DNA of 64,000 bases, from positions 192,092-256,091 of the forward strand of contig CAYMVY010000002.1 in the NCBI GenBank assembly GCA_964394405.1. Direction: 5' to 3'. Of this stretch, positions 6,674-63,137 are shown one piece after another. The notes below the pieces were generated by a model that was not told the origin of the DNA, searched no databases, and saw only the letters and a program-made list of their open reading frames with translations. The stretch is from an uncultured Gammaproteobacteria bacterium. Its GTDB lineage: Bacteria; Patescibacteriota; Patescibacteriia; Magasanikbacterales; UBA922. The position numbers were made by a program, and so were the translations under genes. Within the stretch, counting starts at the first letter, position 1. Every line of letters starts with the position of its first letter.

Positions 6674-7780
6674 CTATTGTGTAGTAGTTGCTGTTTCAGT
6701 CTCCACGGGCACTTCTTCGGTGTCTGACGTTGCATCTTTCAGATCTTCAAATGGATTTCTGAGACCTTTGGATACCTTGATTTCAGAGGCGAGTAGACGT
6801 TCATTCATAAATGTTTCAAACTCAGCGTTGCTACCATCATCGACGAGGAAAAGAATATGTCTCACCTTTACCTCATCTTGCTCATTACCTTCTTGATCCT
6901 TGGTCTTTCTTGTATCATCCACTCGCACGATATGGAATCCAAATTCAGTCTCTACCAATTCACTACCCAGCTCTCCTTTTTTCAAAGAAAATACTGCTTG
7001 CTCAAATTCAGGCACCATTACTCCTTTTCCAAACCAATCTAGATCACCGCCTTTATCTTTGTTACTTGTATCAGCGCTAAATTCTTTTGCCATTTTTTCA
7101 AATGACTCACCACCCTTGATCCGGTCAAGTACTGCCTGTGCTTCTCCGCGAATAGCCTCTTTCTTTGATGGATCTTTGACTGTCTCAAGATATGCTTTTC
7201 CTAATTTTTGGTCAAGAATAGTCGGTAAAACAAATTTACGCGCAAAAACATCGATAGTCCAACCATATCTCTTTACCACATCTTCCTCAGCTTTTTCACG
7301 ATTTTCATATCGCGCAACGATATTTTCTTGTACGAAAGTATCAATCTCTGATTGCTCGACACTCACACCGTATTCTCTCGCAATTTGTCTCACAAATGCA
7401 TCTACTATTAATCTCCGCAACACATAGTCAGACATCTCTGGGTCTGTCGGTCGAGGCAGATTGGTCGTATCAGTGTCATAAAAATTTCTCATCCCTTTCA
7501 AATTCTCCACATATTCACCATAGGGAATTCTCTCACCATTGAGAGAAGCCACTGGAATTCTAAAAATTCGGGCAGTCGTCAGAGTGAATGGTGATTCAGA
7601 TAACGCCTTTACACTTTGAATTCCGACTACATACCAAATTATTGCTGCGATTACCAATGCAACGCCCAGTCCTGCAAACAATAGAGAGCCTGTCTTTGTT
7701 CTTCTTTTTTTGTCTCCCCCTACGCTCGATGTTTCGGCGACACTATCTTTGTGCTCCTCAACCTGTTTTTTTTCTTCCAT
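6674..7780 (-). CDS. peptidyl-prolyl cis-trans isomerase, parvulin (PpiC) type, membrane-anchored PrsA/SurA-like
   Basis: N-terminal TM helix; C-terminal parvulin domain GGDLDWFGKGVMVPEFEQAVFSL...GFHIVRV. Confidence 0.75.
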   Translation of the reverse strand: MEEKKQVEEHKDSVAETSSVGGDKKRRTKTGSLLFAGLGVALVIAAIIWYVVGIQSVKALSESPFTLTTARIFRIPVASLNGERIPYGEYVENLKGMRNFYDTDTTNLPRPTDPEMSDYVLRRLIVDAFVRQIAREYGVSVEQSEIDTFVQENIVARYENREKAEEDVVKRYGWTIDVFARKFVLPTILDQKLGKAYLETVKDPSKKEAIRGEAQAVLDRIKGGESFEKMAKEFSADTSNKDKGGDLDWFGKGVMVPEFEQAVFSLKKGELGSELVETEFGFHIVRVDDTRKTKDQEGNEQDEVKVRHILFLVDDGSNAEFETFMNERLLASEIKVSKGLRNPFEDLKDATSDTEEVPVETETATTTQ

Positions 7781-7790
7781 AGATTACTAA

Positions 7791-8207
7791 TTATTGCCCG
7801 CTATCGGGTGATTGATGAATAAAATAGTACCACCATTTTAGCGGATTTGGAATATCCTGTCCACCCAGTCCTTCCCCCTCTGGGTCACGGATAGCATCTT
7901 GCTGTTTTTCTACGCTGTGTATAAAAAGTACCCGTTCTCCAGGCTTCTTCATATTCAAATCAAGACGAGCCGTGTCCTCGAGATAACTAGTACTTGAAAC
8001 ATATTTCAACAGTTCGATTGATTCGAGCTTCTTTTTCTCCAATTGATTAATCTCACTCTCGAGTCGCTTTACTTCTTCTCGAAATGCATAATCCTTGAAA
8101 TACGCGCGTGCAAAACCAAACGCAAATGCAAATGTGAGCAAAAAAGCAAAGCCCAAAAAAAATTTTGACCCAAAAAATGTCCGTACACGTGAGGATTCCC
8201 GACTCAT
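7791..8207 (-). CDS. septum formation initiator family protein (FtsB/DivIC-like)
   Basis: N-terminal TM, then coiled coil, then ARLDLNMKKPGE resembling the DivIC/FtsB C-terminal motif. Confidence 0.6.
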   Translation of the reverse strand: MSRESSRVRTFFGSKFFLGFAFLLTFAFAFGFARAYFKDYAFREEVKRLESEINQLEKKKLESIELLKYVSSTSYLEDTARLDLNMKKPGERVLFIHSVEKQQDAIRDPEGEGLGGQDIPNPLKWWYYFIHQSPDSGQ

Positions 8208-8235
8208 AGTATTTTATAGTATATCATGACTTGAG

Positions 8236-8841
8236 TTATCCTCTCAATTGTTTGAGTCGAGCTTCAATAATTTTTCGTAGATATACCAAATCTTCAGTAT
8301 CAAGTTCAGTAATGCTTTTATGGAGATCCTCTACTGAAAATCGGGGGTGCGATACTCCCCCATTCACTTGTTTCTTCAACTCATTAATCAATCTCTGAAC
8401 TCCTTGTGGACGACGCACATACTCCACATCAATCCGTATTTTCGAATCTCGCACTCTGATTTCGACTGTTCCATAATTGAGCATCATACGCCACAACCCC
8501 CTCTGTCTCACCACTACGTCTTCAATATCCCCTAATTCTGCTTCTGAGATAGTACGCCCAGTGATTCCATCCTTTGCAATATCAATAATTCGGTAATTAG
8601 TGAGAATAAGGACTGTACCACGAAATCTGACATAATTTGAAATACACCCCGCAACCCCGATCAGGGTGAGGGCCGAAAAACCAATCATACCAATAGTTCC
8701 CTGACGCATGAGCCAGAACATATATATTCCTGCAACTGCAAATGGTATGAGTGCCCCGACCCAGCGCCAAAGATACGTCAACCCAAAGCGCCGAATTTCG
8801 GCTACAATCTGTTCATCGACTCGAAGTGGGATTGATTTCAT
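8236..8841 (-). CDS. bacterial PH-domain (bPH_2/YdbT-like) membrane protein
   Basis: two N-terminal TM helices followed by an ILTNYRIID motif typical of bPH_2 domains. Confidence 0.5.
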   Translation of the reverse strand: MKSIPLRVDEQIVAEIRRFGLTYLWRWVGALIPFAVAGIYMFWLMRQGTIGMIGFSALTLIGVAGCISNYVRFRGTVLILTNYRIIDIAKDGITGRTISEAELGDIEDVVVRQRGLWRMMLNYGTVEIRVRDSKIRIDVEYVRRPQGVQRLINELKKQVNGGVSHPRFSVEDLHKSITELDTEDLVYLRKIIEARLKQLRG

Positions 8842-8844
8842 ATA

Positions 8845-9981
8845 TTAATTCAACCATGGATTTAACTTCTGTAATTGAATTTTCCAGTTAAAAATTTGCT
8901 CGATGCGCTGCCTTCCTGCAGCTCCATACTCAGCACTTTTTTCTTTGTCTCCTAATAATTCAACAATGGTATCAACCACCTTGTGCGCTTCATGATATAC
9001 ATCAAATACCCTTCCAGTCTCTCCATCAATTACCGCCTCCTCTACACCACCACTCTTTCCTGCGACAATTGCCTTGCCAGCTGTCGCAGCCTCGAGAAAC
9101 ACGAGTCCTAGCCCCTCTTCACGCTCACCTGCGGTATGCGTCAATAGTACAAATAGATCTGCGAGGTGATAGTATACTGCTAATTCTTCATGAGGTACTG
9201 ATCCGATAAACCGAACGACATTTTGTAGTGACAATTTTTGCACGGCTTCAAAAATCTCAGCACGCTTAGGCCCATCTCCCACGATTACCCACACTGCATG
9301 AGGTTCTCGAACCAGAATTTCTGGCATTGCATGTACGAGGTGTTGGAATCCCTTGCCAATGTCCATACGTGACACAGAAAGAATTACTTTTTTCCCTTGA
9401 AGCGCAAGCGATCTTCGCAATTTTTCCACTTTTTCTACATCAACCGAACTCAAAAACATCGTATCTGGACACGGATAGACGACTACTGATTTTTGCTCAA
9501 ACTCAGGCAATCTCTCCAAGAATCTCCGCTTGATTGACTCACTATTGAAGACTACTTGTTCTGCCTCTTGAATTACCAGCCTAAGCATTTTTCTCTTCCA
9601 TGGGCTTGCCGAAGCATAGAGTACATCTGTCCCATGAGAAATCACGATATATGGAATTTTTTTGATTTTTTTGACAAGTATAGCGGCATACCCCAATGGT
9701 AGTACATGGTTCACCAATATAATTTCTATTTTTTCCTTTTTTACTATTGAAAAAAAATGTACGATAGTCAATATCCACCGTGGCCAGAAAAAAGAAAGTA
9801 ATTGTTTTTTTCTAAAAATTTTATAGGGTTCTTTCTGATCATATTCCTTATCTCCTGCTATTTTTGGCGCATATACACAGACGCGATCGGGTTCAAGCGA
9901 TCGGGCGAATTGCGCCACATAGGTAGCAATACCCCCAATAGTCGGAGGAAATTCGAGTGTTGCTAATAATATTTTTTTCAT
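8845..9981 (-). CDS. glycosyltransferase family 4 (GT-B, RfaG-like)
   Basis: C-terminal EGLGLVFLEAATAGKAIVAGKSGGVEEAV (EX7E-type GT1/GT4 motif). Confidence 0.8.
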   Translation of the reverse strand: MKKILLATLEFPPTIGGIATYVAQFARSLEPDRVCVYAPKIAGDKEYDQKEPYKIFRKKQLLSFFWPRWILTIVHFFSIVKKEKIEIILVNHVLPLGYAAILVKKIKKIPYIVISHGTDVLYASASPWKRKMLRLVIQEAEQVVFNSESIKRRFLERLPEFEQKSVVVYPCPDTMFLSSVDVEKVEKLRRSLALQGKKVILSVSRMDIGKGFQHLVHAMPEILVREPHAVWVIVGDGPKRAEIFEAVQKLSLQNVVRFIGSVPHEELAVYYHLADLFVLLTHTAGEREEGLGLVFLEAATAGKAIVAGKSGGVEEAVIDGETGRVFDVYHEAHKVVDTIVELLGDKEKSAEYGAAGRQRIEQIFNWKIQLQKLNPWLN

Positions 9982-15541: not shown

Positions 15542-15679
15542 GTAAATATGTTTAACGCTGACATTGTAGCGTATCTGACTAAAGTTGTCAAGAACTTCCA
15601 GATTGTGTCTAAAGACCTATATCTTGGCTTATTTTAGCATAATAATTTATATTTGACAAACTGTGCACAACTTGATAGT

Positions 15680-16046
15680 TTGCACCTGGTGGATGCAGAA
15701 ACAGTGTACTGCAGAAGTTTCCGGGTTCGTTGCTCGGCACTGGTCCTTGAGATAGTTCCTGGTGTGTAGAGCCATAGGCGGGAGACTGAGAGATCGTGTG
15801 CGGTGTCTACATGGAGCATCAAATAAGGAAAGATCCGAATAGTCGAAAGGCATCGGTACGGGCATTGCTCTCGAGCGGGCCTACTTACACGTCTTATCCT
15901 CGATTTGATGCGATGAAGTGGAGACGTCCCGCACGGAGGATCGTCGTTGAAATACCGCCCTCTAGGAGCGAAATACATTCGAAAGGATTCTGCATCCACC
16001 ACCCTACCCCGCCGACACTTGTGTCCGCGGGGTTTATCTTTTTTAT
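15680..16046 (+). ncRNA. candidate GC-rich structured non-coding transcript of about 360 nt, identity unknown
   Basis: consensus-like promoter (TTGACA at 15651) upstream; about 55% GC region with no credible ORF on either strand; ends in a strong intrinsic terminator; no RNase P, tmRNA or SRP motif found by eye. Confidence 0.25.
16007..16046 (+). terminator. intrinsic terminator (copy 1 of a duplicated terminator)
   Basis: CCCCGCCGACAC-tt-GTGTCCGCGGGG followed by TTTATCTTTTTT. Confidence 0.7.
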
Positions 16047-16112
16047 ACAGTTTGACCAAAACACTATTCTATAGTATACACTCCTTATCCCACACATCGG
16101 AGGAAAAGGGAT

Positions 16113-16475
16113 ATGACGATCAATAATCTCATGGGCACTCAGTTCGTTATCGCGTCCTACAAGATCAAGGATGAGCTCTTCATCCACGGAGGTCCGGATG
16201 CAAGAATAGTAGCAAAAGGAATCCTCCGGTACATGGTTCAAAGCACCCTCACAGAAAATCCTCAGGCAGATGTCAGCCGCCTGATGGAAGATGCAGTGGC
16301 GCTCACACCTACCCTCAAGTACCTGAGTGTCGACGAGCTCCACGAGATCACCAGTCGGGCAGCTGACAATGATCTCGATGCAAGAGTCTTCGAATTCATG
16401 CTTGAAGTACTGCGAGGGTCAGTCCCGACCGAAGACTCCTTCCTCGGGAAGGTGAAAGTTCCCACCATACCCTAA
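16113..16475 (+). CDS. hypothetical protein, GC-rich
   Basis: 120 aa; strong SD GGAGGAAAAGGGAT before the ATG; about 55% GC versus an AT-rich backbone. Confidence 0.5.
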   Translation: MTINNLMGTQFVIASYKIKDELFIHGGPDARIVAKGILRYMVQSTLTENPQADVSRLMEDAVALTPTLKYLSVDELHEITSRAADNDLDARVFEFMLEVLRGSVPTEDSFLGKVKVPTIP

Positions 16476-16493
16476 CCCAGCCGGAGAAACACC

Positions 16494-16706
16494 GTGCCTG
16501 ATCGATACTGCACCACTTGCAGAAAACCCATCAGCGATACCTCACGCCCGCATACACGCATGATCGATGCCATGAATGGAGGTGTCGAGATCATAGAGTG
16601 CGTGGGCGGCATACTTGTCGATGCATCTGCGCTTGGACGCAATCCGCGCTGGTCGTACATCGACTACTCGAGCCACGTGACCGGGATTCACCCCAACGAT
16701 GGCTGA
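16494..16706 (+). CDS. hypothetical small protein (GTG start), GC-rich
   Basis: 70 aa; GGAG 7 nt upstream of GTG; 18 nt after the preceding ORF; followed by a terminator. Confidence 0.4.
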   Translation: MPDRYCTTCRKPISDTSRPHTRMIDAMNGGVEIIECVGGILVDASALGRNPRWSYIDYSSHVTGIHPNDG

Positions 16707-16732
16707 GGTTCATTGGACCAGCTATTGCGCGA

Positions 16733-16769
16733 CCCCGCCGACACCATGTCCGCGGGGTTCATCTTTTTT
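16733..16769 (+). terminator. intrinsic terminator (copy 2, near-identical to 16007..16046)
   Basis: CCCCGCCGACACCATGTCCGCGGGG followed by TTCATCTTTTTTAT. Confidence 0.7.
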
Positions 16770-16806
16770 ATATGTACTTTTCTTTTCTCTTTTTTACTTT
16801 TAACCT

Positions 16807-17250
16807 TTAACTTTTTACTTCCTCTCTCTCCCGATACACCCAAAATCGAAATAGTGCAAAATTCCACAGTACCATGCACGCAATTGAAGCTACTCGTACC
16901 AATAGATATGGAAGTCCAAGAATCTCGTTTCCCAAATGCATCGCACCTACTGAGAACGCATAGTTCCATGTTGCGAGTATCAGATATCGTACTAATTCTT
17001 TGTGTGAAGGAGCCTTGCTTCCAAACGACCATTTTTTATTGAGAGTAAAATTAAACCCAAGCACTATTGCCTGATTGATGATAACTGACACGGTCGGATT
17101 CAGCTGGATCCACTCAACAAACACAACAAGCAATGCGAGATCAATCGCAACACTTGAAACTCCGACAATTACATATTTTGCGAATTTTACTCGCTCTGCC
17201 CACGCCATTGCGATAACATGAAGAATTTTTTGTTTCATAGATGTAGGCAA
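16807..17250 (-). CDS. GtrA family polysaccharide-synthesis membrane protein
   Basis: 147 aa, 4 TM helices; YVIVGVSSVAIDLALLVVFVEW...LNKKWSF matches GtrA-like. Confidence 0.65.
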   Translation of the reverse strand: MPTSMKQKILHVIAMAWAERVKFAKYVIVGVSSVAIDLALLVVFVEWIQLNPTVSVIINQAIVLGFNFTLNKKWSFGSKAPSHKELVRYLILATWNYAFSVGAMHLGNEILGLPYLLVRVASIACMVLWNFALFRFWVYREREEVKS

Positions 17251-20045: not shown

Positions 20046-20180
20046 CTATTAACTCAAAGCTTAAAACTCAAAACGCAAAACGATAACTTAAGTCTAAAAA
20101 CTAATTATTATATTTAGTTTTTAATTTTTTAGTGTAGTTTTGAGTTTTGAAATTTGAGTTTTGAAATTTGAGTTTTGCGT
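20046..20180. repeat. AT-rich imperfect-palindrome intergenic element ('caaaactcaaa' family); right arm carries an internal tandem duplication
   Basis: aactcaaagcttaaaactcaaaacgcaaaacgataact ... agttttgagttttgaaatttgagttttgaaatttgagttttgcgtt. Confidence 0.7.
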
Positions 20181-20187
20181 TACACGT

Positions 20188-20595
20188 TTACACTTTCTTT
20201 ATCCTCTTCCCATGCGGATCCTTCTTCGGATTCCCCAAAAAATTTGCGAGACGTTTTATTACCTCATCTGAAAATGCATGTTCAAGTCTGTGCGCTTCGT
20301 CATGCACTTTTTCTGGGTCAATGCCCAGGATTGTGTGAAGAAAAAATTCGATGAGACGATGTTTGTAGGTGAGTTTTTCGGCAAGAGTTAATCCTTGCTT
20401 CGTAAGACTGATTCCACCACTTCGGTCGGTTTTTATTAACCGAGCGCGTTCGAGATCGTGAACGCGTTCTGAAACAGTCGATCTAGCGAGACCTAGATAG
20501 CGTGAAATGTCGATAATACGAACCTGTAGTCCCTGTTCATGGAGCGAATATACTGCTCGAACATAATCTTCCCTTGTAGGAGTTGTTTTTCGCAT
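20188..20595 (-). CDS. mntR: DtxR/MntR family metal-dependent transcriptional repressor
   Basis: N-terminal wHTH (ISRYLGLARSTVSERVHDLERARLI), then a metal-binding/dimerisation helix with His/Glu ligands; heads the metal ABC operon. Confidence 0.8.
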   Translation of the reverse strand: MRKTTPTREDYVRAVYSLHEQGLQVRIIDISRYLGLARSTVSERVHDLERARLIKTDRSGGISLTKQGLTLAEKLTYKHRLIEFFLHTILGIDPEKVHDEAHRLEHAFSDEVIKRLANFLGNPKKDPHGKRIKKV

Positions 20596-20604
20596 AAAGC
20601 ACTT

Positions 20605-20622
20605 TGTTCGTATATACGAACA
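20605..20622. promoter_or_regulatory. perfect 18-bp palindrome TGTTCGTATATACGAACA: candidate MntR autoregulatory operator overlapping a -10-like TATATA
   Basis: perfect dyad symmetry 10 nt upstream of the mntR ATG; centre reads as a -10 hexamer. Confidence 0.45.
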
Positions 20623-20806
20623 TCACTATATCACACTTGAACACTCTCGTCAAGGATCGAATTATCCACCAAATAAGCATTGACAAAGTGCTCATTTTGA
20701 GATACCCTTTCTTGAGTTTGACTATGCAGCATTCGCGGCACATCAAACTCTCGAGTCGACCAAAAGGAAGACCGAATTCACAACGACACAAAGGAGTACA
20801 ATCGCC

Positions 20807-21022
20807 ATGCCCAATACCATACAGGACCGGAACTCCAATCGGTACGATCTCCCAGAGTTCCCGAAGCGCGGTTCCCTGCGCCACGACGGCATGACCGCCG
20901 CCTCCACCACCTCCCCGTCCAGCAAACGTGGAGGAGAATACCAGGTCGGCCATGACCCGGAAGAGGAGGTCGAACCCACCCAGATGGTCAACCACTTCTT
21001 CGGCCGGGGACGGAGAGGGTAG
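20807..21022 (+). CDS. hypothetical small protein, GC-rich
   Basis: 71 aa; SD AAGGAG 10 nt upstream; promoter-like TTGACA-17-TACCCT at 20683-20711. Confidence 0.3.
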   Translation: MPNTIQDRNSNRYDLPEFPKRGSLRHDGMTAASTTSPSSKRGGEYQVGHDPEEEVEPTQMVNHFFGRGRRG

Positions 21023-21127
21023 GTCGGTTCGCAAGTTTCGAACGCGTACAACCACATACGGGCCACTCTGGTTCCCGCATGACGGAAGTACGCGTTCGGA
21101 CTCTCTCAAAAACGATATTCATTATTC

Positions 21128-21157
21128 AAACGCCTTATGGGCGATTTTTTGTTTTTT
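21128..21157 (+). terminator. intrinsic terminator (copy 1 of a duplicated terminator)
   Basis: CGCC-ttatg-GGCG followed by ATTTTTTGTTTTTT. Confidence 0.6.
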
Positions 21158-21177
21158 AACCTATCCACCCCCTACTC

Positions 21178-21206
21178 TTGACAGCATATTCACTCTATGC
21201 TAGTAT
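21178..21206 (+). promoter_or_regulatory. sigma70-type promoter TTGACA-17-TAGTAT
   Basis: exact -35 consensus, 17-bp spacer, TAnnnT -10. Confidence 0.55.
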
Positions 21207-21292
21207 CTTTTGAAGTTTGGACTGGCTATGCATTCGCTTGCCATGCGACCAGACTTTTTCTGTGACACCTGCGACGAGACAGGAGAGTCCTC

Positions 21293-21478
21293 ATGAAGGA
21301 TCCCCCGATGACCAGCATCAAGGGAAACAATCCCAACATTCCGGCGATGACGAACGGCAACAACCTCGACCGGCCGATGGACGCCGGCACCAAGAAGAAG
21401 GGCACCGACCGCGACCGCTACGCGCGCGCGAAGAAGATCTCGATGAAGGGGCACGGCGGCTCGAAGCCGGCGGCCTGA
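21293..21478 (+). CDS. hypothetical small basic protein, GC-rich
   Basis: 61 aa; SD GGAGAG 5 nt upstream of the ATG; alternative overlapping 98-aa ORF 21217..21513 is low-complexity. Confidence 0.35.
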   Translation: MKDPPMTSIKGNNPNIPAMTNGNNLDRPMDAGTKKKGTDRDRYARAKKISMKGHGGSKPAA

Positions 21479-21517
21479 TCGAGCGCGGCGAGCGAGCTCC
21501 TACCAACCCCTAGACCA

Positions 21518-21677
21518 AAGGAGGTCCTGGTGCGGAAGTACGCAGTGTTCTAGATGGGCTCACACCGAGCCCTCCTCGGCACCTTCCTAGGGCGACAACG
21601 ACGCCGTCGCCCACAACCTCTCAACGGAGGAAAGATGAGGAAGTACGCAGTGTTCTAGATAGGCTCACACCGAGCCT
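21518..21677 (+). repeat. tandem direct repeat (2 x about 42 bp, period 105 bp), each unit = SD + 7-codon mini-ORF M-R-K-Y-A-V-F + stop + GGCTCACACCGAGCC hairpin
   Basis: AAGGAGGtcctgGTGCGGAAGTACGCAGTGTTCTAGATGGGCTCACACCGAGCC at 21518; GGAGGAAAGATGAGGAAGTACGCAGTGTTCTAGATAGGCTCACACCGAGCC at 21626; both in the same frame. Confidence 0.6.
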
Positions 21678-21817
21678 CCCACGCGCCCGCACGCATCCCC
21701 TACCACGACGCAACCAACGGTACGGGAAATGCTTCGGACGCACCTGGCGCCGCGCCCTCGCATGAACTTCGGTTCAAGCGACGGGTGCGGCGCCAGACAC
21801 TCAATTCAATCATTCTG

Positions 21818-21846
21818 AAAACGCCTTATGGGCGATTTTTTGTTTA
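21818..21846 (+). terminator. intrinsic terminator (copy 2, identical core to 21128..21157)
   Basis: AAACGCCTTATGGGCGATTTTTTGTTT. Confidence 0.6.
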
Positions 21847-21861
21847 TATAAGTGTCTTGCA

Positions 21862-21890
21862 TTGACAGAAAGATATAATTATGCTACACT
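21862..21890 (+). promoter_or_regulatory. sigma70-type promoter TTGACA-17-TACACT upstream of the membrane protein gene
   Basis: exact -35, 17-bp spacer. Confidence 0.45.
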
Positions 21891-22058
21891 CTTCCGTTCG
21901 TCTTTGACGAAAGATCTTTACATGAATTTAGCCATTTCCATGCATTTGGTCAGTATTGTGATATTTCAATTTTTGAATTATTGCACAACTGACTAAAAAG
22001 CTGAGTGGTGAAGTTCACTATTTGGTTCATAAGTCAAAATGTCAGCCAGGAGGCAGAC

Positions 22059-23030
22059 ATGTTCGGTAAGCTCTTCGAGGTGTTCAACATCGAGAAGTGG
22101 TCGGGCCTCGGCCTGACGCTTCTCACCTGTGTTCTTCTCATGACGACTGCTCGTGCGCTTCTTGCGCCGGGTGTCGTCGAGTTCCCTTCCGAGCTCGCCT
22201 CGGATGGTGACTACTGGAGTATGATTGCGATGAGCGCACTGCTCATCGCGGTCGATGCCATGCTGATCGTGCTCGTGTCCTGGTCCTCACTCAACACGCC
22301 GAAAGACGTGATGGGTGTCGCCCTCATGGTCGGGTTGACGCATGTCGTCTTCCCGCTCGTGACCTTCGGCCTCACCGCCGGCGCGACCTTCCTCAGCCAG
22401 CACACGGGCCTCCCGATGTGGTTGGGGCAGGGCATCCTCACGGGCATCTACCTCCTCGCGTTCTACTTCGTTGTGTTCCACCTCCGTGAGGTGCATCGCG
22501 GTATCCGCGAGGGCGAGTCGGACAAGCTCAGCTCGGACCAACCCGCGTTCACGCGAGCGTGGCTGCGGGTGATCTGGCCCATCGTGTTTGCGGTCTCGGT
22601 CGACGCCCTTCTGGTGGGACCGGCTAAGATCGCCTTCATGGCCCGCTACACCGAGACGCAGTTCATGATGAGCTTCGTCTTGATCGGCGGGAGCGTGTTT
22701 GTGCTCGTGATGAGCGCTGGCCTCTTGGTCCTCGCCCTCAAGAAGTGGATCGACAACCACGCGCGGATCTCGAGGAAGGTCCACCAGTTCGACTGGCTTG
22801 GGTCACTCCTCCTCGTCCTCGTCTTCATCCACTTCTCGGTCTTCGCCTTGGTGTACGTGCTCTACACGTTCATCCCGAAGGCATGGATCCTCGAACCCCA
22901 GACCATCTGGAGCGCTACCGGCGCCATCTTCCTCCTCTACCTCATCTTCGGACGAGTGGGGGAGATCAAGAAGGCGAGCCTCGAACGGGCTGGACTGGGT
23001 CCGGCCGAAGTCGAGAATGAAGCAGCCTGA
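22059..23030 (+). CDS. hypothetical polytopic membrane protein, GC-rich (about 58% GC)
   Basis: about 10 TM helices; start set at ATG 22059 preceded by AGGAGG-cagac; the ORF-track start at 22005 lacks an SD. Confidence 0.6.
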   Translation: MFGKLFEVFNIEKWSGLGLTLLTCVLLMTTARALLAPGVVEFPSELASDGDYWSMIAMSALLIAVDAMLIVLVSWSSLNTPKDVMGVALMVGLTHVVFPLVTFGLTAGATFLSQHTGLPMWLGQGILTGIYLLAFYFVVFHLREVHRGIREGESDKLSSDQPAFTRAWLRVIWPIVFAVSVDALLVGPAKIAFMARYTETQFMMSFVLIGGSVFVLVMSAGLLVLALKKWIDNHARISRKVHQFDWLGSLLLVLVFIHFSVFALVYVLYTFIPKAWILEPQTIWSATGAIFLLYLIFGRVGEIKKASLERAGLGPAEVENEAA

Positions 23031-23113
23031 TAGCTGAACCGAACAACAGGTTGGGGACGACATCATCATCACATGCGTGATCGGTGATGCCTGTCCCCTG
23101 CCTTAGTCTACAT

Positions 23114-23170
23114 AAAAAGCAGATAGCTAGTAGCAAAATCTTTGATACTGTACTATCTGCTTTTTTATTT
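23114..23170. terminator. bidirectional intrinsic terminator between convergent genes
   Basis: AAAAAGCAGATAG...28-nt loop...CTATCTGCTTTTTTATTTT. Confidence 0.6.
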
Positions 23171-24135
23171 TACGTCACTACAAAATCTACATTTCTAATA
23201 TCGTATACATTTTTTCCTCCACTATACGAAATCGCACTTTGTAAATCTTCTTCTATTTCTTTGAGTTTCTGTTCATAAGTCATATTATTGCACTCAATAT
23301 GGCGCAAAAACCCTTCCACATGATGATTGGTACCCTTATTATACTCAGAGGCTGAACCAAAATAAATCTTTTTTATTTCCCCATCTACACTAATCGTCTC
23401 ACCTGGAGAATCAATGCAGCTACTAAAAATCCCTCCAGCCATGATGAGGTCTGCTCCTGCATGAATTGCTTTTGCGATATCTCCATTATTTTTGATACTC
23501 CCGTCAGCAATGAGAAGTGTCTTCAGGGAATGTTCTTTTTTTGCTTCACTGCATTCCTTTACACATGAATACATCGGGTATGTGAAACCTGTCTTAAACT
23601 TGGTAGAGCATGCAGATCCGCCACCAATCCCCACTTTTACTGCATCAGCTCCCCAATTACTCAAATCCACAAAAGCCTGTTTACTCGCAACATTCCCTGC
23701 GATAATAAAACAATTTGGGTAATATTTTCTTACGTGTTCCAGAATATTTTTGACAGCTGGACTATGGCCATGTGCAATATCAATCGTAATTGCATCAACT
23801 CGAAAATTTTTATCTTTGAGTGTACGGATACATTCATAATCAGCTTCTTTTACACCGAGAGAAAGTGAGATGAACATATCCTGATTTTTACCCACCCAGT
23901 CTATAATTTCTTCGTATGTATAAAAACGATGCAAAATGTAAAAATAATCATGCGTCGCCATCCATCGAGCAAGCATAAAATCAATCGTGCACTTCATATT
24001 AGCAGGCATGATTGGCAGTCGCCAACGACGGGAAGCAAAGGAAAGTGTTGTATCACACTCTGAACGCGAATTTACTACACACATTTTTGGCACGAGCCAA
24101 ATAGACGAGTATTCGAGTGCTCTATCCATAGACAA
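23170..24135 (-). CDS. guaC: GMP reductase (IMPDH/GMPR family)
   Basis: 321 aa; blocks LPIMPANM, TIDIAHGHS, IIAGNVAS, GADAVKVGIGGGSACSTKFKTG align with E. coli GuaC; no CBS insert. Confidence 0.75.
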   Translation of the reverse strand: MSMDRALEYSSIWLVPKMCVVNSRSECDTTLSFASRRWRLPIMPANMKCTIDFMLARWMATHDYFYILHRFYTYEEIIDWVGKNQDMFISLSLGVKEADYECIRTLKDKNFRVDAITIDIAHGHSPAVKNILEHVRKYYPNCFIIAGNVASKQAFVDLSNWGADAVKVGIGGGSACSTKFKTGFTYPMYSCVKECSEAKKEHSLKTLLIADGSIKNNGDIAKAIHAGADLIMAGGIFSSCIDSPGETISVDGEIKKIYFGSASEYNKGTNHHVEGFLRHIECNNMTYEQKLKEIEEDLQSAISYSGGKNVYDIRNVDFVVT

Positions 24136-24189: not shown

Positions 24190-26091
24190 TTATTCTACAA
24201 TTGCTTTGATGCGTCTGACTCCCGCACTTACTGCCTCTTCTTTTACTATCTTGAATTTTCCAATCACTCCAGTGTGTTCCACATGCGGGCCTCCGCAGAG
24301 TTCCCGACTGAATGTGGGAGCCGTAGCGTCTGCGACTGGCAACTCTTTTGGATCACCAACACTATACACTTTGACCATATCTTCGTATTTGTCACCAAAG
24401 AGTCCGATTGCTCCTCGTCTTTTTGCTTCCTCAATTGGAATTATTTCGTAGGTCACCGGATAATCACGCTCTATTGCTGAGTTTACCAAATCTTCCACTT
24501 GTTTGATTTGTTCTGATGTCATTTTTTCTCCATGCGCAAAATCAAACCGCAATCGCTCTGGCGTAATATTACTCCCCTTCTGTGTTGCGTGAGGACCTAA
24601 AATTTTTAGAACCGCAGCGTGCAGTAAATGCGTTGCGGTATGATATTTGAGACTCATTTCACTGTGATCAGCCAAGCCACCTTTGAATTTCTGCTCTGAC
24701 CCTGCTCGTGACAAATCCTGATGTTTTTTGAACTCTTCATTATATTCCGCTACATTAATTTCACTTCCTGATATTTGTTTTGCGATTTCGATGGTCAACT
24801 CTTTGGGGAAACCAAAATTCTGATACAGGTCAAACGCATCTTTGCCTGTAACTGTTTTCTTACTATTCAAAATTTTTTCTAACTCTTTGGTTCCTTTCTG
24901 TATTGTCGCTCCAAATTTCTTTTCCTCTTTTTCCATTTCACTTAATATCTTTTCTTTGTTGGTTTCTAAATCTGGATATGCATCTTTGTATACTTCAATA
25001 ATCGATTCCGCAATATCTTTGGTAAAATTCGTCGTAATTTCAAGATTACGCGCGTAGCGAATACTGCGACGAATGAGACGTCTCGTAAAATATCCCTGAT
25101 CTTTGTTGGAAGGCACGACTCCATCACCGATTAAAAATGTTGCTGCACGAAGATGGTCCATGATTACACGAAACGCATAAGTAATTTCGGTAGTCTCTCC
25201 ATATTTTTTTCCAGACACCCCCTCGAGTTTATTCCGCACGCCATCAAATAAATCAATTTTAAATACATCAGGATCACTGCTCCGTGCTGCTGCCATGCGC
25301 TCGAGTCCGCCACCAAAATCCACATTCTGCTGTTTCAATTTTTCAAAACCACTCTCAGTTTTCTGGTATTCCATGAATACATTGTTGCCGATTTCCATGA
25401 ATCGTCCGCAATCACAATTCACGTGACATGGTTCATTTTTCCACGCTGAATTTTCATGTAAACCCATCTCAGCACCAAAATCCCAGAACATCTCAGTGTC
25501 TGGTCCTCCTGGTTCTCCGACTGGCATATTTCCAGGGATCCCACTTCGGCTCCACCAATTTTTCTTTTCAGAATAATAAAAAATTCGCTCTCCAGATCTC
25601 ATTCCATCTTTCTCTGGATTTTCACCAATACTCGCATCAATCCCCCTGTCCGCAAATAATTTTTGCCACAATTCAGCAGATTCAGTATCACGTGGAATAC
25701 CAAGTTCTTCGTTTCCTTTGAAACAGGTGAAATACAAACGATTTGGATCAAGATCAATTTCACTAGTCAAAAATTCCCACATCCAGGAAATTTGTTCTTG
25801 CTTGAAATAATCGCCGAGTGACCAGTTGCCAAGCATTTCGAAGAGGGTGGTATGACGATTGTCCCCCACTTCCTCAATATCTTGTGATCGAAAACATTTT
25901 TGTGAATCAACAATCCTCGTTCCCTTGGGATGCTTTTGTCCCAACAAATACGGCACCATCGGCTGCATTCCTGAGCCAGTAAATAGTGTCGTCGGATCAT
26001 TTTCCGGTAATAACGAAGAAGACGGGATAATTACATGCCCTCTCGCTGCAAAAAAATCTAAGTATTTTTTTCTTAAATCTGTGGTAAGCAT
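24190..26091 (-). CDS. alaS: alanine--tRNA ligase, short form (catalytic plus editing domains; no C-Ala domain)
   Basis: N-terminal class II core MLTTDLRKKYLDFFAARGH...FTGSGMQPM; editing-domain HxxxH...CGGPHV; 633 aa versus about 870 typical. Confidence 0.85.
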   Translation of the reverse strand: MLTTDLRKKYLDFFAARGHVIIPSSSLLPENDPTTLFTGSGMQPMVPYLLGQKHPKGTRIVDSQKCFRSQDIEEVGDNRHTTLFEMLGNWSLGDYFKQEQISWMWEFLTSEIDLDPNRLYFTCFKGNEELGIPRDTESAELWQKLFADRGIDASIGENPEKDGMRSGERIFYYSEKKNWWSRSGIPGNMPVGEPGGPDTEMFWDFGAEMGLHENSAWKNEPCHVNCDCGRFMEIGNNVFMEYQKTESGFEKLKQQNVDFGGGLERMAAARSSDPDVFKIDLFDGVRNKLEGVSGKKYGETTEITYAFRVIMDHLRAATFLIGDGVVPSNKDQGYFTRRLIRRSIRYARNLEITTNFTKDIAESIIEVYKDAYPDLETNKEKILSEMEKEEKKFGATIQKGTKELEKILNSKKTVTGKDAFDLYQNFGFPKELTIEIAKQISGSEINVAEYNEEFKKHQDLSRAGSEQKFKGGLADHSEMSLKYHTATHLLHAAVLKILGPHATQKGSNITPERLRFDFAHGEKMTSEQIKQVEDLVNSAIERDYPVTYEIIPIEEAKRRGAIGLFGDKYEDMVKVYSVGDPKELPVADATAPTFSRELCGGPHVEHTGVIGKFKIVKEEAVSAGVRRIKAIVE

Positions 26092-27786: not shown

Positions 27787-27815
27787 TTGACAAAAGCAAA
27801 GAAATATGGTATTAT
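27787..27815 (+). promoter_or_regulatory. sigma70-type promoter TTGACA-17-TATTAT
   Basis: exact -35, 17-bp spacer, near-consensus -10. Confidence 0.6.
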
Positions 27816-27877
27816 GATTTGTCCTTTTGGACCGTTCGCCATTGGTGAATGAACTCTGTGACAAGGATACCAGAAAA

Positions 27878-28087
27878 ATGCTGAGGCATGAGTTTCTCCA
27901 GCAGTTCGATGCTATTGGCCGCAATCATGCGGTCAAAATCATCCAGTCCAACGGCGGAGAGTACGTGGCGAGGTGGCCTGATGTGAAGATCCACGCTCGA
28001 CACGTGAAACTCCCGGATGCCACCGCCCCCGCCGCCATCCGTGTGCCGTACGACGAGATCAAAGGTGTCACGAAGTACTCCGGGTAG
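27878..28087 (+). CDS. hypothetical small protein, GC-rich (start ATG 27878; alternative TTG 27827)
   Basis: 70-86 aa; AAGGAT 9 nt upstream of the ATG; about 55% GC. Confidence 0.35.
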   Translation: MLRHEFLQQFDAIGRNHAVKIIQSNGGEYVARWPDVKIHARHVKLPDATAPAAIRVPYDEIKGVTKYSG

Positions 28088-28184
28088 ACCGCGCAAGCAC
28101 ACCCAGATCTCACGCCCTGCCGTCCCGTGTTTGTCCCCCGACGTACGTCGAGGTCTCGACGAACACGGGCGGCACAAACACATT

Positions 28185-28207
28185 CACCGAAATACGGTGT
28201 TTTTTTA
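28185..28207. terminator. intrinsic terminator (T-run overlaps the mnmA stop)
   Basis: CACCG-aaata-CGGTG followed by TTTTTTT; preceded by a larger GC-rich stem CCGTCCCGTGTT...AACACGGGCGG. Confidence 0.55.
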
Positions 28208-57902: not shown

Positions 57903-57931
57903 TGACAACAGGGGTCTTTTTGGCTAGAGTC
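57903..57931 (+). promoter_or_regulatory. sigma70-type promoter TTGACA-17-TAGAGT
   Basis: exact -35; followed by a GCTTACC-gcagt-GGTAAGC hairpin in the leader. Confidence 0.5.
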
Positions 57932-57992
57932 ATACGCTTACCGCAGTGGTAAGCAGATGATCAACCGTCCATTCGGAAACAGGAGTCTAGAG

Positions 57993-58199
57993 ATGGCACA
58001 GGTCAGTCTGAGATACATCCACAAGCTCGTCTACATGTTTGGACCATGTCCCCGTCATCCCGACGTGACCCTCACGAGCAAGTCGCCCACCTGCGCCAAG
58101 TGCCGGTGGGAGCGCGAGCTCTACGAGAAGGGCATGGTGCTCACCCACGAGTACATCCAGCTCCAGGTGCCCGGGTACGAAGAGGAGGCCAACAAGTGA
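57993..58199 (+). CDS. hypothetical small Cys-containing protein, GC-rich (about 60% GC)
   Basis: 68 aa; AGGAG 7 nt upstream of the ATG; CPRH...CAKC; followed by an 11-bp-stem terminator at 58225-58275. Confidence 0.35.
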   Translation: MAQVSLRYIHKLVYMFGPCPRHPDVTLTSKSPTCAKCRWERELYEKGMVLTHEYIQLQVPGYEEEANK

Positions 58200-58343
58200 C
58201 AGGGGCCACACACCGGGCCCCCCCAATGACCGAGATATCGCTTGTATGCATATCTCGGTCGCTTTCATTTTAGGGGTATATACAGACAAAAATAAGACTT
58301 ATCCCCATATATACCTTGCAATACATAGTACCTTATACTATAG

Positions 58344-62539: not shown

Positions 62540-62578
62540 GCCCAGTTTTACGAGTGGGCGGTGAGCTCGGTTGGAGGT
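62540..62578 (-). terminator. intrinsic terminator (minus strand)
   Basis: on the minus strand CGCCCA-ctcgtaaaact-TGGGCG GCTTCG TTTTTTTT. Confidence 0.6.
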
Positions 62579-63037
62579 TTAGACGAATGTGAACTTGGAC
62601 TCAGCGAGGATCTTCCGCGCGCGATCGCGACTGATCACCTGGAACTCCACGCCCCCGATCGTGACCGAGAGGGTGCGTGCAGACCCCAGATAATACAGCT
62701 GGAACCTGCTGACCATGAACCTCGCATGCTCGATCACGTAGTCGATCGATTCGATGCATTGGTCCGGTCGCCCCTTCTCGCTGTCGAGAGCAAAGAAGAA
62801 CTCAGTGTCTCCCAGCACTCGAGCGAGCACGATGAAGTCATCTCGACCGAGGTCGCCATTGCCGATCCGAGAACCCCTCTGATCGAACCAGCCGGCCTGC
62901 GACATGATGCGGTTCTCACCGCGCGACTGCCCCGGTGCAATCGAGGCACGAGTCCACAACGATTCTGCAGTCAAACGATTCATACTCCCCCTTTTCATTT
63001 CTCCTACCAGTTCTACAAGCACCCTGTTTGTACTCAC
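62579..63037 (-). CDS. hypothetical protein, GC-rich (about 58% GC); start uncertain (GTG 63037 or ATG 62998)
   Basis: minus-strand consensus promoter TTGACA-17-TATAGT at 63061-63089; the opposite-strand ORF is low-complexity. Confidence 0.4.
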   Translation of the reverse strand: MSTNRVLVELVGEMKRGSMNRLTAESLWTRASIAPGQSRGENRIMSQAGWFDQRGSRIGNGDLGRDDFIVLARVLGDTEFFFALDSEKGRPDQCIESIDYVIEHARFMVSRFQLYYLGSARTLSVTIGGVEFQVISRDRARKILAESKFTFV

Positions 63038-63060
63038 AAAACTGGTAGGAAAGACACTGC

Positions 63061-63089
63061 ACTATAGAATATTTTTTTCCCTTTGTCAA
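63061..63089 (-). promoter_or_regulatory. sigma70-type promoter TTGACA-17-TATAGT (minus strand)
   Basis: exact -35 and a 5/6 -10 hexamer read on the minus strand. Confidence 0.5.
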
Positions 63090-63137
63090 TATCAAACAGC
63101 CTCTTGGTAGAGGCTGTTTTTTATGAATGAGATTATG

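Follow-up and report, generated by a model that had tools for sequence, protein, structure and literature searches.

The interval between mntR and guaC described here lies in a 64-kb stretch of a Candidatus Magasanikbacteria genome, a member of the candidate phyla radiation (CPR). We refer to this whole stretch as the window; its mean GC content is 41%. Leading away from mntR, the interval holds an 18-bp palindrome at the mntR promoter, two small transcription units that each carry one short open reading frame (ORF) and that we call cassettes A and B, a gene for a 323-aa membrane protein, and a terminator used in common with the convergent guaC gene. From ~20700 to ~23140 the GC content rises from ~0.40 to 0.51-0.65, in agreement with the ~2.4-kb GC-rich stretch reported in an earlier reading of this DNA (the original prediction). 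AT-rich promoters and terminators, together with a leader of 170 nt, interrupt this stretch, and its genes have a GC content at third codon positions (GC3) of 0.78-0.92, compared to 0.30-0.36 (~0.33) in the neighboring genes, ribosomal protein genes included. With moderate confidence, we read the interval as a variable intergenic zone of a manganese-homeostasis locus and not as a recently inserted foreign island. For comparison we used the lineages with an mntR-membrane protein locus, namely the window, L003, L004-6 and L018. Over the region, the Logan contig L001 matches the window at 100% identity, and L023 and L024 are one short metagenomic contig each.

The membrane protein gene occupies 22059..23030 on the plus strand, with GGAGG 7 nt before the ATG. 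A promoter and a polytopic membrane protein of 324 aa had been predicted here; the promoter and the membrane ORF are both present, and the length is 323 aa. Its family comprises 25 homologues of 268-331 aa (alignment A1), the closest named one from a Candidatus Magasanikbacteria metagenome-assembled genome. A hidden Markov model (HMM) search of 1.84 billion representatives gave 66 clusters at E<=1e-3 and only 29 at E<1e-10. The named homologues and the genome-collection matches are all from CPR bacteria, most database matches are unnamed metagenome sequences, and the nearest named relative outside the CPR is a cyanobacterial protein. The link to the manganese exporter family MntP runs through intermediates. 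Pfam PF02659 (Mntp) is matched by 7/25 family members, with P0004 scoring 24.4 bits, exactly the gathering score. The next tier of the HMM search consists of proteins of ~240-290 aa with Mntp matches at or around the cutoff: among ten that we scanned (254-287 aa), four score at or above it (24.4-29.0 bits) and four below (17.8-24.0). Alignment of the family profile (A1) to that of this tier (A2) by hhalign gave a probability of 99.9% over 236 columns (E = 7e-33). MntP proteins have a fully conserved Asp in transmembrane segment (TMS) 1 and the motif S-x-D-A-x-x-x-G in TMS4 (PMC4608589). The columns of the membrane family fit both, as D66-A67, S180, D182 and A183 are invariant across the 25 sequences and G187 is nearly invariant. 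The AlphaFold model (pLDDT 81) is all-helical; together with a hydropathy scan it gives seven strong hydrophobic segments and an eighth helix, that is, 7-8 transmembrane (TM) helices, and suggests an MntP-like 3+3 core at approximately residues 50-230 with additional helices at either end.

Judged by sequence, the protein is a new, enlarged branch of the MntP superfamily and a non-canonical member of it. With MntP/YebN (PF02659, TC 2.A.107, LysE superfamily) it has in common the transitive profile-level relationship, the Asp-Ala of TMS1, the TMS4 motif, a 3+3 repeat-like core, and a gene that adjoins a manganese regulator and importer. It differs in having one extra N-terminal and one or two extra C-terminal helices on 323 aa, where MntP has ~190-200 aa and 6 TM helices, in lying below Pfam detection, and in its further invariant residues (T94-H95, P99, H141, E144, K190 and H258). 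The family also includes a circularly permuted variant (P0028 / P0030; loci L014-L016), in which the equivalent of residues ~247-312, the last two helices, is N-terminal and is followed by ~27-245; its host contigs have 35-37% GC. Separately, the public gene calls for L001 place antisense ORFs at 7812-8309 (165 aa) and 9083-9334 (83 aa) where the membrane protein and the cassette B protein would be called. These correspond to window 22287-22784 and 21200-21454 on the minus strand, and the exact membrane protein is not on record. We rejected the antisense 165-aa ORF at 22287-22784 as a gene, since avoidance of TTA, CTA and TCA codons by the sense gene is enough to keep this frame open.

The gene adjoins mntR-mntABC in divergent orientation in all four lineages. 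Window and L003, L004 and L018 membrane proteins are 82, 77 and 72% identical, respectively, compared to 84, 73 and 65% for MntR and 77 and 71% for GuaC in L004 and L018 (no value for L003). The divergence of the membrane protein thus matches that of MntR, ZnuA and GuaC, with the same rank order, and its dN/dS is 0.13-0.19. Because the gene is syntenic by mntR-mntABC in four lineages and has diverged like its neighbors, these alignments indicate that it is inherited vertically and was not recently acquired.

This bears directly on the proposal that the interval is a horizontally acquired or mobile composite, with the membrane protein as the cargo or effector of a small toxin or immunity-like system. 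In that account the whole 2.4-kb block would have come recently from a GC-rich donor, and the foreign-looking codon usage, the presence/absence polymorphism seen in L023, the differing cassette content of L003, L004, L018 and L024 and the orphan status of the small ORFs would all follow. The atypical composition and the variable content are real. However, four diverged lineages keep the membrane gene in synteny with mntR, its divergence is congruent with that of its neighbors, its synonymous sites remain G/C although close to saturation, and an MntP-like protein functionally matches its neighbors. ORF and Pfam scans of the window showed no recombinase, integrase or transposase ORFs near the interval, and Rfam at the gathering score found only three tRNAs in the whole window, all elsewhere. 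No direct repeats flank 21151/23113, the sole direct repeat being the internal terminator pair. The region has no phage or plasmid similarity by blastn and no relative among viral contigs. The toxin or immunity role fares no better: the membrane protein belongs to the MntP superfamily and has no defense or toxin match in Pfam, NCBIfam or PADLOC, PADLOC returned zero matches for the three proteins of the interval, and the two small proteins are hydrophilic (GRAVY, the mean hydropathy, -1.3), unlike type I toxins. (The one PADLOC match among window ORFs, to RmrT at E = 0.047, is the unrelated ORF 27827-28087.) We regard the composite model as largely contradicted for the membrane gene and as unsupported, if conceivable, for the small cassettes, and a recent composite origin of the entire block as very unlikely.

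The second line of evidence is the codon usage of the membrane gene, with GC3 values of 0.85 (window), 0.77 (L003), 0.84 (L004) and 0.65 (L018). Among window, L003 and L004, its 4-fold degenerate sites are 37-53% identical, compared to ~40% expected at saturation. G<->C swaps make up 33/68, 41/73 and 45/87 of the 4-fold differences (48-56%), compared to 4/44, 6/73 and 6/75 in znuA and 5-10% in neighboring genes. Observed GC at 4-fold sites (GC4) is 0.77-0.86, above a neutral upper bound of 0.64-0.72 that was obtained with turnover calibrated on the neighboring genes and an ancestor taken as 100% G/C at these sites. The GC-rich block opens at the start codon, after an AT-rich leader, and a Peribacteria genome with a 45%-identical homologue has an equally sharp block of 60-64% GC within 35-45% GC. 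Since the synonymous sites are near saturation yet still G/C, the comparison indicates that the high GC3 is a maintained state and not a relic of recent transfer. Three simple causes were tried and rejected. Strand orientation does not explain it, as ordinary plus-strand genes show normal GC3 (65/73 large ORFs of the window lie on the minus strand). Translational optimization fails in that ribosomal protein genes use A/T-ending codons, and a high-GC donor was discarded given that the nearest named non-CPR relative is the cyanobacterial protein.

The GC-rich state might instead reflect repeated loss and re-acquisition of the membrane gene and the cassettes by recombination at conserved flanks or terminators, with no selection involved; the source would be a GC-rich gene pool, for instance CPR relatives of high GC content or an element that has not been sampled. 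Some family members do sit in GC-rich CPR genomes (L008, 58% GC; L010, 52% GC), strain-level loss and re-joining at terminators occurs, the identity between L003 and L018 is incongruent, and GC3 declines to 0.65 in L018 and to 0.43, the genome value, in L009 and L019, which resembles amelioration. Against such replacement, the AT-rich promoter and leader are contiguous and co-diverge with the gene, the start codon marks the exact onset of the GC-richness, its divergence ranks in the same order as that of the neighbors, and the 1.84 billion representatives contain no donor beyond CPR-like relatives. We consider repeated replacement distinctly unlikely.

What the protein transports is suggested by homology and context. 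Besides the mntR-mntABC arrangement, L019 has a homologue that is flanked by genes for GDT1 (UPF0016) and Nramp. On this basis Mn2+, or else a similar divalent cation, is the most likely export substrate of the protein, which we refer to below as the putative exporter. An MntP/LysE-superfamily protein with another substrate (Fe2+, Ca2+, Cd2+ or a small solute, for instance), for which the adjacency to mntR is a legacy of gene order, must also be considered. The LysE superfamily covers many cation and solute exporters (PMC4608589), the extra helices and the invariant H95, H141, E144, K190 and H258 are non-canonical for MntP, many homologues lack a manganese context, and in L007 the neighbor is a Na/Ca exchanger. 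But at the family level Mntp provides the best, and the sole, sequence link, and there are two independent manganese contexts, mntR-mntABC and GDT1 plus Nramp. A different substrate therefore appears unlikely to us, and we retain manganese export as the working assignment.

The neighboring regulator gene, mntR (20188-20595, minus strand; 135 aa), heads an operon of mntR, a znuA-like gene, an ABC ATPase gene and a permease gene, with all four genes on the minus strand. The regulator has two domains and belongs to the DtxR/MntR family, and the binding protein is closest to the Mn/Fe EfaA/MntC types; both score under the equivalog cutoffs. The promoter scan identified TTGACG-17-TATAGT at 20625..20653 on the minus strand (10/12 matches) as the mntR-mntABC promoter. 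The predicted 18-bp perfect palindrome, TGTTCGTATATACGAACA at 20605-20622, is present upstream of mntR in a single copy in the window; a degenerate search gave 1 match compared to 0.27 expected. It begins 4 nt downstream of the mntR -10 box and overlaps the predicted transcription start, and its half-sites (TGTTCG.A/T.CGAACA) are kept in L003, L004 and L018, with different central bases. Because of this position and conservation, the palindrome is probably an operator for MntR. The metal-loaded repressor would, on binding there, shut off mntR and the mntABC importer, and at metal excess the MntP-type protein would expel Mn2+ or a similar divalent cation. A DnaA-box-like TTATCCACC had also been noted at 20652. 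It lies at 20662-20670 and is the only one in the region, but the window has four, compared to 4.9 expected, and we do not retain it as a feature. Within the operon, the gap between mntR and the znuA-like gene (20051-20176) contains AT-rich nested inverted repeats with 55-nt arms that are 73% complementary and a tandem TTTGAGTTTTGAAA x2, which may form an internal regulatory or processing element.

The promoter of the putative exporter gene, TTGACA-17-TACACT (21862..21890, plus strand), was found by the promoter scan and is conserved in L003, L004 and L018. It is followed by an AT-rich structured 5' leader (21891..22058, plus strand) in which alignment and folding reveal a long conserved hairpin and a second hairpin that partly sequesters the Shine-Dalgarno sequence. 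Mean column identity of the ~170-nt leader is 79% across the four lineages, and the fold has a z-score of -4.17. The consensus fold has 46 pairs, 4 of them with double changes, a thin covariation signal from four distinct sequences. We infer that the leader, with its last hairpin over the ribosome-binding site, probably tunes expression of the gene post-transcriptionally. Two further elements lie in the leader. A palindrome, TTCGTC-TTTG-GACGAA, at 21897-21911 coincides with the predicted transcription start; its half-sites are like the mntR operator (TTCGTA-TA-TACGAA), the spacing differs, and compensatory changes in L004 (CGCC/GGCG) preserve its pairing. The element may act as a hairpin at the 5' end of the mRNA or as a weaker, second operator, and we do not take it as an operator because all cassettes have 5' hairpins. 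The other is a short hydrophobic upstream ORF at 21921-21995 on the plus strand (MNLAISMHLVSIVIFQFLNYCTTD), with counterparts in L003 and L004 and in another frame in L018; its nucleotide-level conservation suggests constraint on the RNA rather than on the peptide. Past the stop codon, a GC-rich 3' stem-loop (GGGGAC...GTCCCC; 23053..23098, plus strand) has equivalents of different sequence in L004 and L018. The bidirectional terminator predicted at the end of the interval, AAAAA-GCAGATAG...CTATCTGC-TTTTTT, is found at 23114-23166, lies between the putative exporter gene and the convergent guaC, and is conserved in L004, L018 and L023.

This arrangement is reminiscent of two known systems. The E. 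coli MntR regulon includes mntH, mntS (which encodes a small protein and lies by mntR) and mntP, which has a long regulated 5' untranslated region (UTR) and is controlled both through it and by MntR (PMC4361602; PMC11647493). In common with it, the present locus groups repressor, importer, exporter and small protein genes around mntR, has a long structured leader before the putative exporter gene, and has a palindrome at the import promoter. It differs in that the importer is an ABC system in the same operon as mntR, the exporter promoter has no MntR box, and the 71- and 61-aa hydrophilic proteins are dissimilar to the 42-aa MntS and missing in sister lineages. We see the likeness as one of functional logic only, and an MntS-like role of the small proteins is speculation by analogy. 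The second is the yybP-ykoY Mn2+ riboswitch (RF00080), which controls mntP and alx. There too a structured leader with a Shine-Dalgarno-occluding hairpin precedes an MntP-type gene, but the leader in the window is AT-rich and dominated by one long hairpin, it has no match to RF00080, and any ligand binding by it is putative.

We next describe the small units between mntR and the putative exporter gene, which form two autonomous cassettes. Each consists of a promoter, a 5' hairpin, a Shine-Dalgarno sequence, an ORF with G/C-ending codons, a GC-rich 3' structure and the same terminator. The GC-richness of the interval is the sum of this extreme G/C-ending codon usage and the GC-rich RNA structures. 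In cassette A, the ORF predicted with a promoter at 20807-21022 (plus strand) is present and encodes a 71-aa hydrophilic orphan (ORF71; GC3 0.78). The promoter, TTGACA-17-TACCCT at 20680..20708 (plus strand), has a weak -10 and falls below the scan threshold; L003 has TTGACA-17-TACGCT. The 5' leader stem-loops (20714..20775, plus strand; fold z = -2.95) are ~95% identical to L003. The 3' stem-loop (21037..21100, plus strand; 13-bp stem, z = -3.3), which contains GGAAGTACGC, is 84% identical to L003, where the pairing is kept through a compensatory A>G / T>C change. Leader and 3' stem-loop are more conserved relative to L003 than the coding DNA of ORF71. The L003 homologue of ORF71 has 81 aa and preserves the motifs YDLPE, LRHDGMT and GGEYQVG despite synonymous changes, which indicates translation, and ORF71 shows GC3 periodicity. 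It has no Pfam, NCBIfam or PADLOC match and no homologue besides that in L003. The cassette closes with terminator copy T1, AACGCCTTATGGGCGATTTTTTGTT (21129..21153, plus strand). This terminator occurs exactly twice in the window, at 21129 and 21820, compared to 0 expected.

Cassette B was confirmed in each of the predicted elements: the 61-aa basic ORF, its promoter TTGACA-17-TAGTAT, the duplicated terminator and the tandem mini-ORF repeats. The promoter scan places the promoter, which has a TG extension, at 21178..21206 (plus strand). ORF61 (21293..21478, plus strand) encodes an orphan protein with an isoelectric point of 10.4; its GC3 is 0.92, with in-phase third-position GC of 0.83-1.00. 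The L024 homologue (P0093) is 73% identical and differs by a 27-nt in-frame indel, with the C-terminal 38 codons near-identical; no Pfam, NCBIfam or PADLOC match was found for either small protein. Downstream lies a structured, mostly non-coding 3' region with ~65% GC (21479..21819, plus strand) that is conserved in L024. With the second terminator copy, T2 (21820..21844, plus strand), included, 21479-21850 folds at a minimum free energy of -158 kcal/mol (z = -6.65), and 21480-21800 shows no codon periodicity. The tandem repeats of 48 nt (21531 and 21636) share 90% identity at a spacing of 105 nt, and each carries a GGAGG, a 7-codon ORF and a hairpin. Mini-ORF 1 (21530..21553, plus strand; GTG CGG AAG TAC GCA GTG TTC TAG) has its GGAGG 5 nt upstream and its hairpin at 21556-21572. 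For mini-ORF 2 (21635..21658, plus strand; ATG AGG AAG TAC GCA GTG TTC TAG) the values are 4 nt and 21661-21677. Both encode MRKYAVF, and the peptide in L024 is MRKHAVF. Across the four copies (two in the window, two in L024), Shine-Dalgarno, start and stop are retained. Of the six codon sites that vary, five differ only by synonymous or equivalent start codons; at the sixth (Tyr/His), the two units of a genome agree. This is the pattern that peptide-level constraint would give, and on four copies from two genomes the mini-ORFs are apparently translated.

A second mini-ORF type, MKNKDP, recurs at L024 356-384 and L003 7127-7150 / 7262-7339 (MKNKDPPL*, MKNKDPS*, MKNKDPTSKDR...). As it resembles the way ORF61 begins (MKDPPM), the start of ORF61 may have been duplicated repeatedly in cassette 3' regions. 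We also considered whether cassette B arose from cassette A by tandem duplication and rejected this: the leader similarity is no more than suggestive, with 42/500 shuffles scoring equally. The pre-Shine-Dalgarno segment common to cassette A and module 2 of L003 is significant, matched by 0/500 shuffles. In type III toxin-antitoxin loci, tandem RNA repeats are followed by a terminator and then the toxin gene. Here, too, tandem repeats and a terminator precede a gene, but there are just two repeats, 105 nt apart, and the downstream gene is a conserved transporter that is repeat-free in relatives.

It is conceivable that neither the small ORFs nor the mini-ORFs are translated and that cassettes A and B produce structured non-coding RNAs, with the reading frames as by-products of GC-rich sequence. 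UTRs that are better conserved than the ORF71 coding region, the extreme structure of the cassette B 3' region and the GGAAGTACGC motif common to the cassette A stem and both mini-ORFs would fit this, and GC-rich DNA yields long chance ORFs on either strand. Yet the in-phase GC3 periodicity is strong in ORF61 and ORF71 and stops in 21480-21800, the ORF71 peptide motifs survive synonymous changes, the ORF61 indel is in-frame, Shine-Dalgarno spacing is correct, and the variable mini-ORF codons are nearly all synonymous. We judge a purely non-coding function to be highly improbable and treat ORF61 and ORF71 as coding.

A comparison of syntenic mntR-guaC intervals had been proposed as a check on the original prediction. 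It showed that the small-cassette content varies, whereas the putative exporter gene is kept in L003, L004-6 and L018 and absent in L023. Both small-ORF modules are absent from L004 and L018, in which the gap between mntR and the putative exporter gene is ~280-315 nt, and L003 has three small modules in this position. L004 carries a different GC-rich cassette at 9100-9480 (plus strand), between the exporter 3' hairpin and the bidirectional terminator, comprising a promoter, an orphan ORF of 85 aa and a GC-rich hairpin. Contig L023, which matches the window at 97.6-99.2% identity, lacks 21151-23113; its left breakpoint falls directly past T1 (alignment ending at 21150) and its right one at the A-run of the bidirectional terminator. 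In L024, cassette B extends as far as T2, with similarity stopping just past GGGCGATTTTTTGTTT, and is followed by an unrelated GC-rich cassette. As read from these breakpoints, terminator hairpins are the sites at which relatives gain, lose and re-join cassettes. Integron cassettes are likewise compact single-gene units of atypical composition that are swapped at hairpin-forming boundaries. The units described here differ in having their own promoter and an ordinary intrinsic terminator instead of attC, and there is no integrase.

Several observations weigh against reading the interval as a manganese-homeostasis locus with a vertically inherited exporter. The window membrane protein itself has no Mntp match even at E<=10 and no match in Pfam or NCBIfam. 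It is larger than canonical MntP (323 aa and 7-8 TM helices compared to ~200 aa and 6) and resembles no solved structure, every TM-score being below 0.3. Several homologues stand in contexts without a metal link. The regulator scores under all of the MntR/DtxR equivalog cutoffs in NCBIfam, so that its specificity for manganese is only putative. No second MntR box occurs within 3 mismatches at the exporter or cassette promoters, and the leader has no Rfam match at E<5, yybP-ykoY RF00080 included; metal-responsive control of the putative exporter is thus only putative. The near-identical L023 lacks the gene, which makes it dispensable. One pair is incongruent, L003 and L018, with 77% identity for the membrane protein compared to 64% for MntR. 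Finally, the small proteins and mini-ORFs have no assignable function.

The mntR-guaC interval is not a unique island but one instance of a genome-wide cassette class. The small ORFs of the other cassettes in the window are lineage-specific. A GC-rich cassette at 16060-16780 (plus strand) has two ORFs of 120 and 70 aa (GC3 0.60-0.63) and is flanked by a duplicated terminator (ACCCCGCCGACAC..GTCCGCGGGGTT.ATCTTTTTTATA) at 16005-16046 and 16733-16775, mirroring T1 and T2 around cassette B. Units at 27788-28205 (plus strand), 57903-58270 (plus strand) and 62540-63095 (minus strand) each have a consensus promoter, a 5' hairpin, an orphan ORF (86, 80 and 152 aa; GC3 0.70-0.80) and a terminator, and their ORFs have no family matches and no homologues in related loci. 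At 15678-16046 (plus strand), a promoter (TTGACA-17-TAGTTT) and an intrinsic terminator enclose a GC-rich unit of ~370 nt, whose ends pair in a 13-bp helix (GGTGGATGCAGAA...TTCTGCATCCACC) and whose fold has z = -3.6. It has no Rfam match, is not conserved in L003 apart from the terminator, and is a candidate structured non-coding RNA. Rfam searches of 20550-23200 and 15550-16850 at E<5 gave chance-level matches only. Elsewhere in the window, the alanyl-tRNA synthetase gene (24190-26091, minus strand) encodes 633 aa, as in L001 and L023, compared to 775 aa in L004 (10620-12947).

One explanation for the codon usage of this class is that AT-rich Magasanikbacteria and other CPR bacteria keep a second, G/C-ending codon dialect under long-term selection for autonomous transcription units. 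We hold this only tentatively, as a rather unlikely possibility. If true, the units concerned would encode the exporter of MntP type, small orphan proteins and heptapeptides translated from the mini-ORFs, each unit having a consensus promoter, a 5' hairpin and a GC-rich 3' structure. The dialect could then mark a translational or mRNA-stability regulon, tuned for instance by tRNA supply or modification or by ribonuclease avoidance, whose small-gene members would be shuffled from strain to strain at common terminator hairpins. Codon-biased stress genes that are tunable by tRNA modification have been reported in yeast and mycobacteria. As in those cases, a discrete gene set has the opposite synonymous choice to the genome and the bias is maintained, but the bias here is far more extreme (85-92% G/C-ending) and coincides with GC-rich structured UTRs, and a link to tRNAs or their modification is hypothetical here.

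For the biology of these organisms, the analysis offers a plausible MntP-type metal efflux role for a conserved family of hypothetical proteins, which would complete a manganese regulator-importer-exporter circuit in minimal-genome CPR bacteria. Gene callers tuned to an AT-rich genome mis-call GC3-rich genes, and such genes are therefore under-represented in protein databases. A GC3 of ~0.8 inside genomes of ~0.33, bounded by the ORF and seen in several CPR lineages, is not predicted by standard mutation-bias or amelioration models and presents a testable instance in which selection or some biased process shapes the synonymous sites of bacteria with small genomes. The terminator-bounded cassettes, with their heptapeptide ORFs, may provide a natural system in which to follow the birth and loss of orphan small genes.

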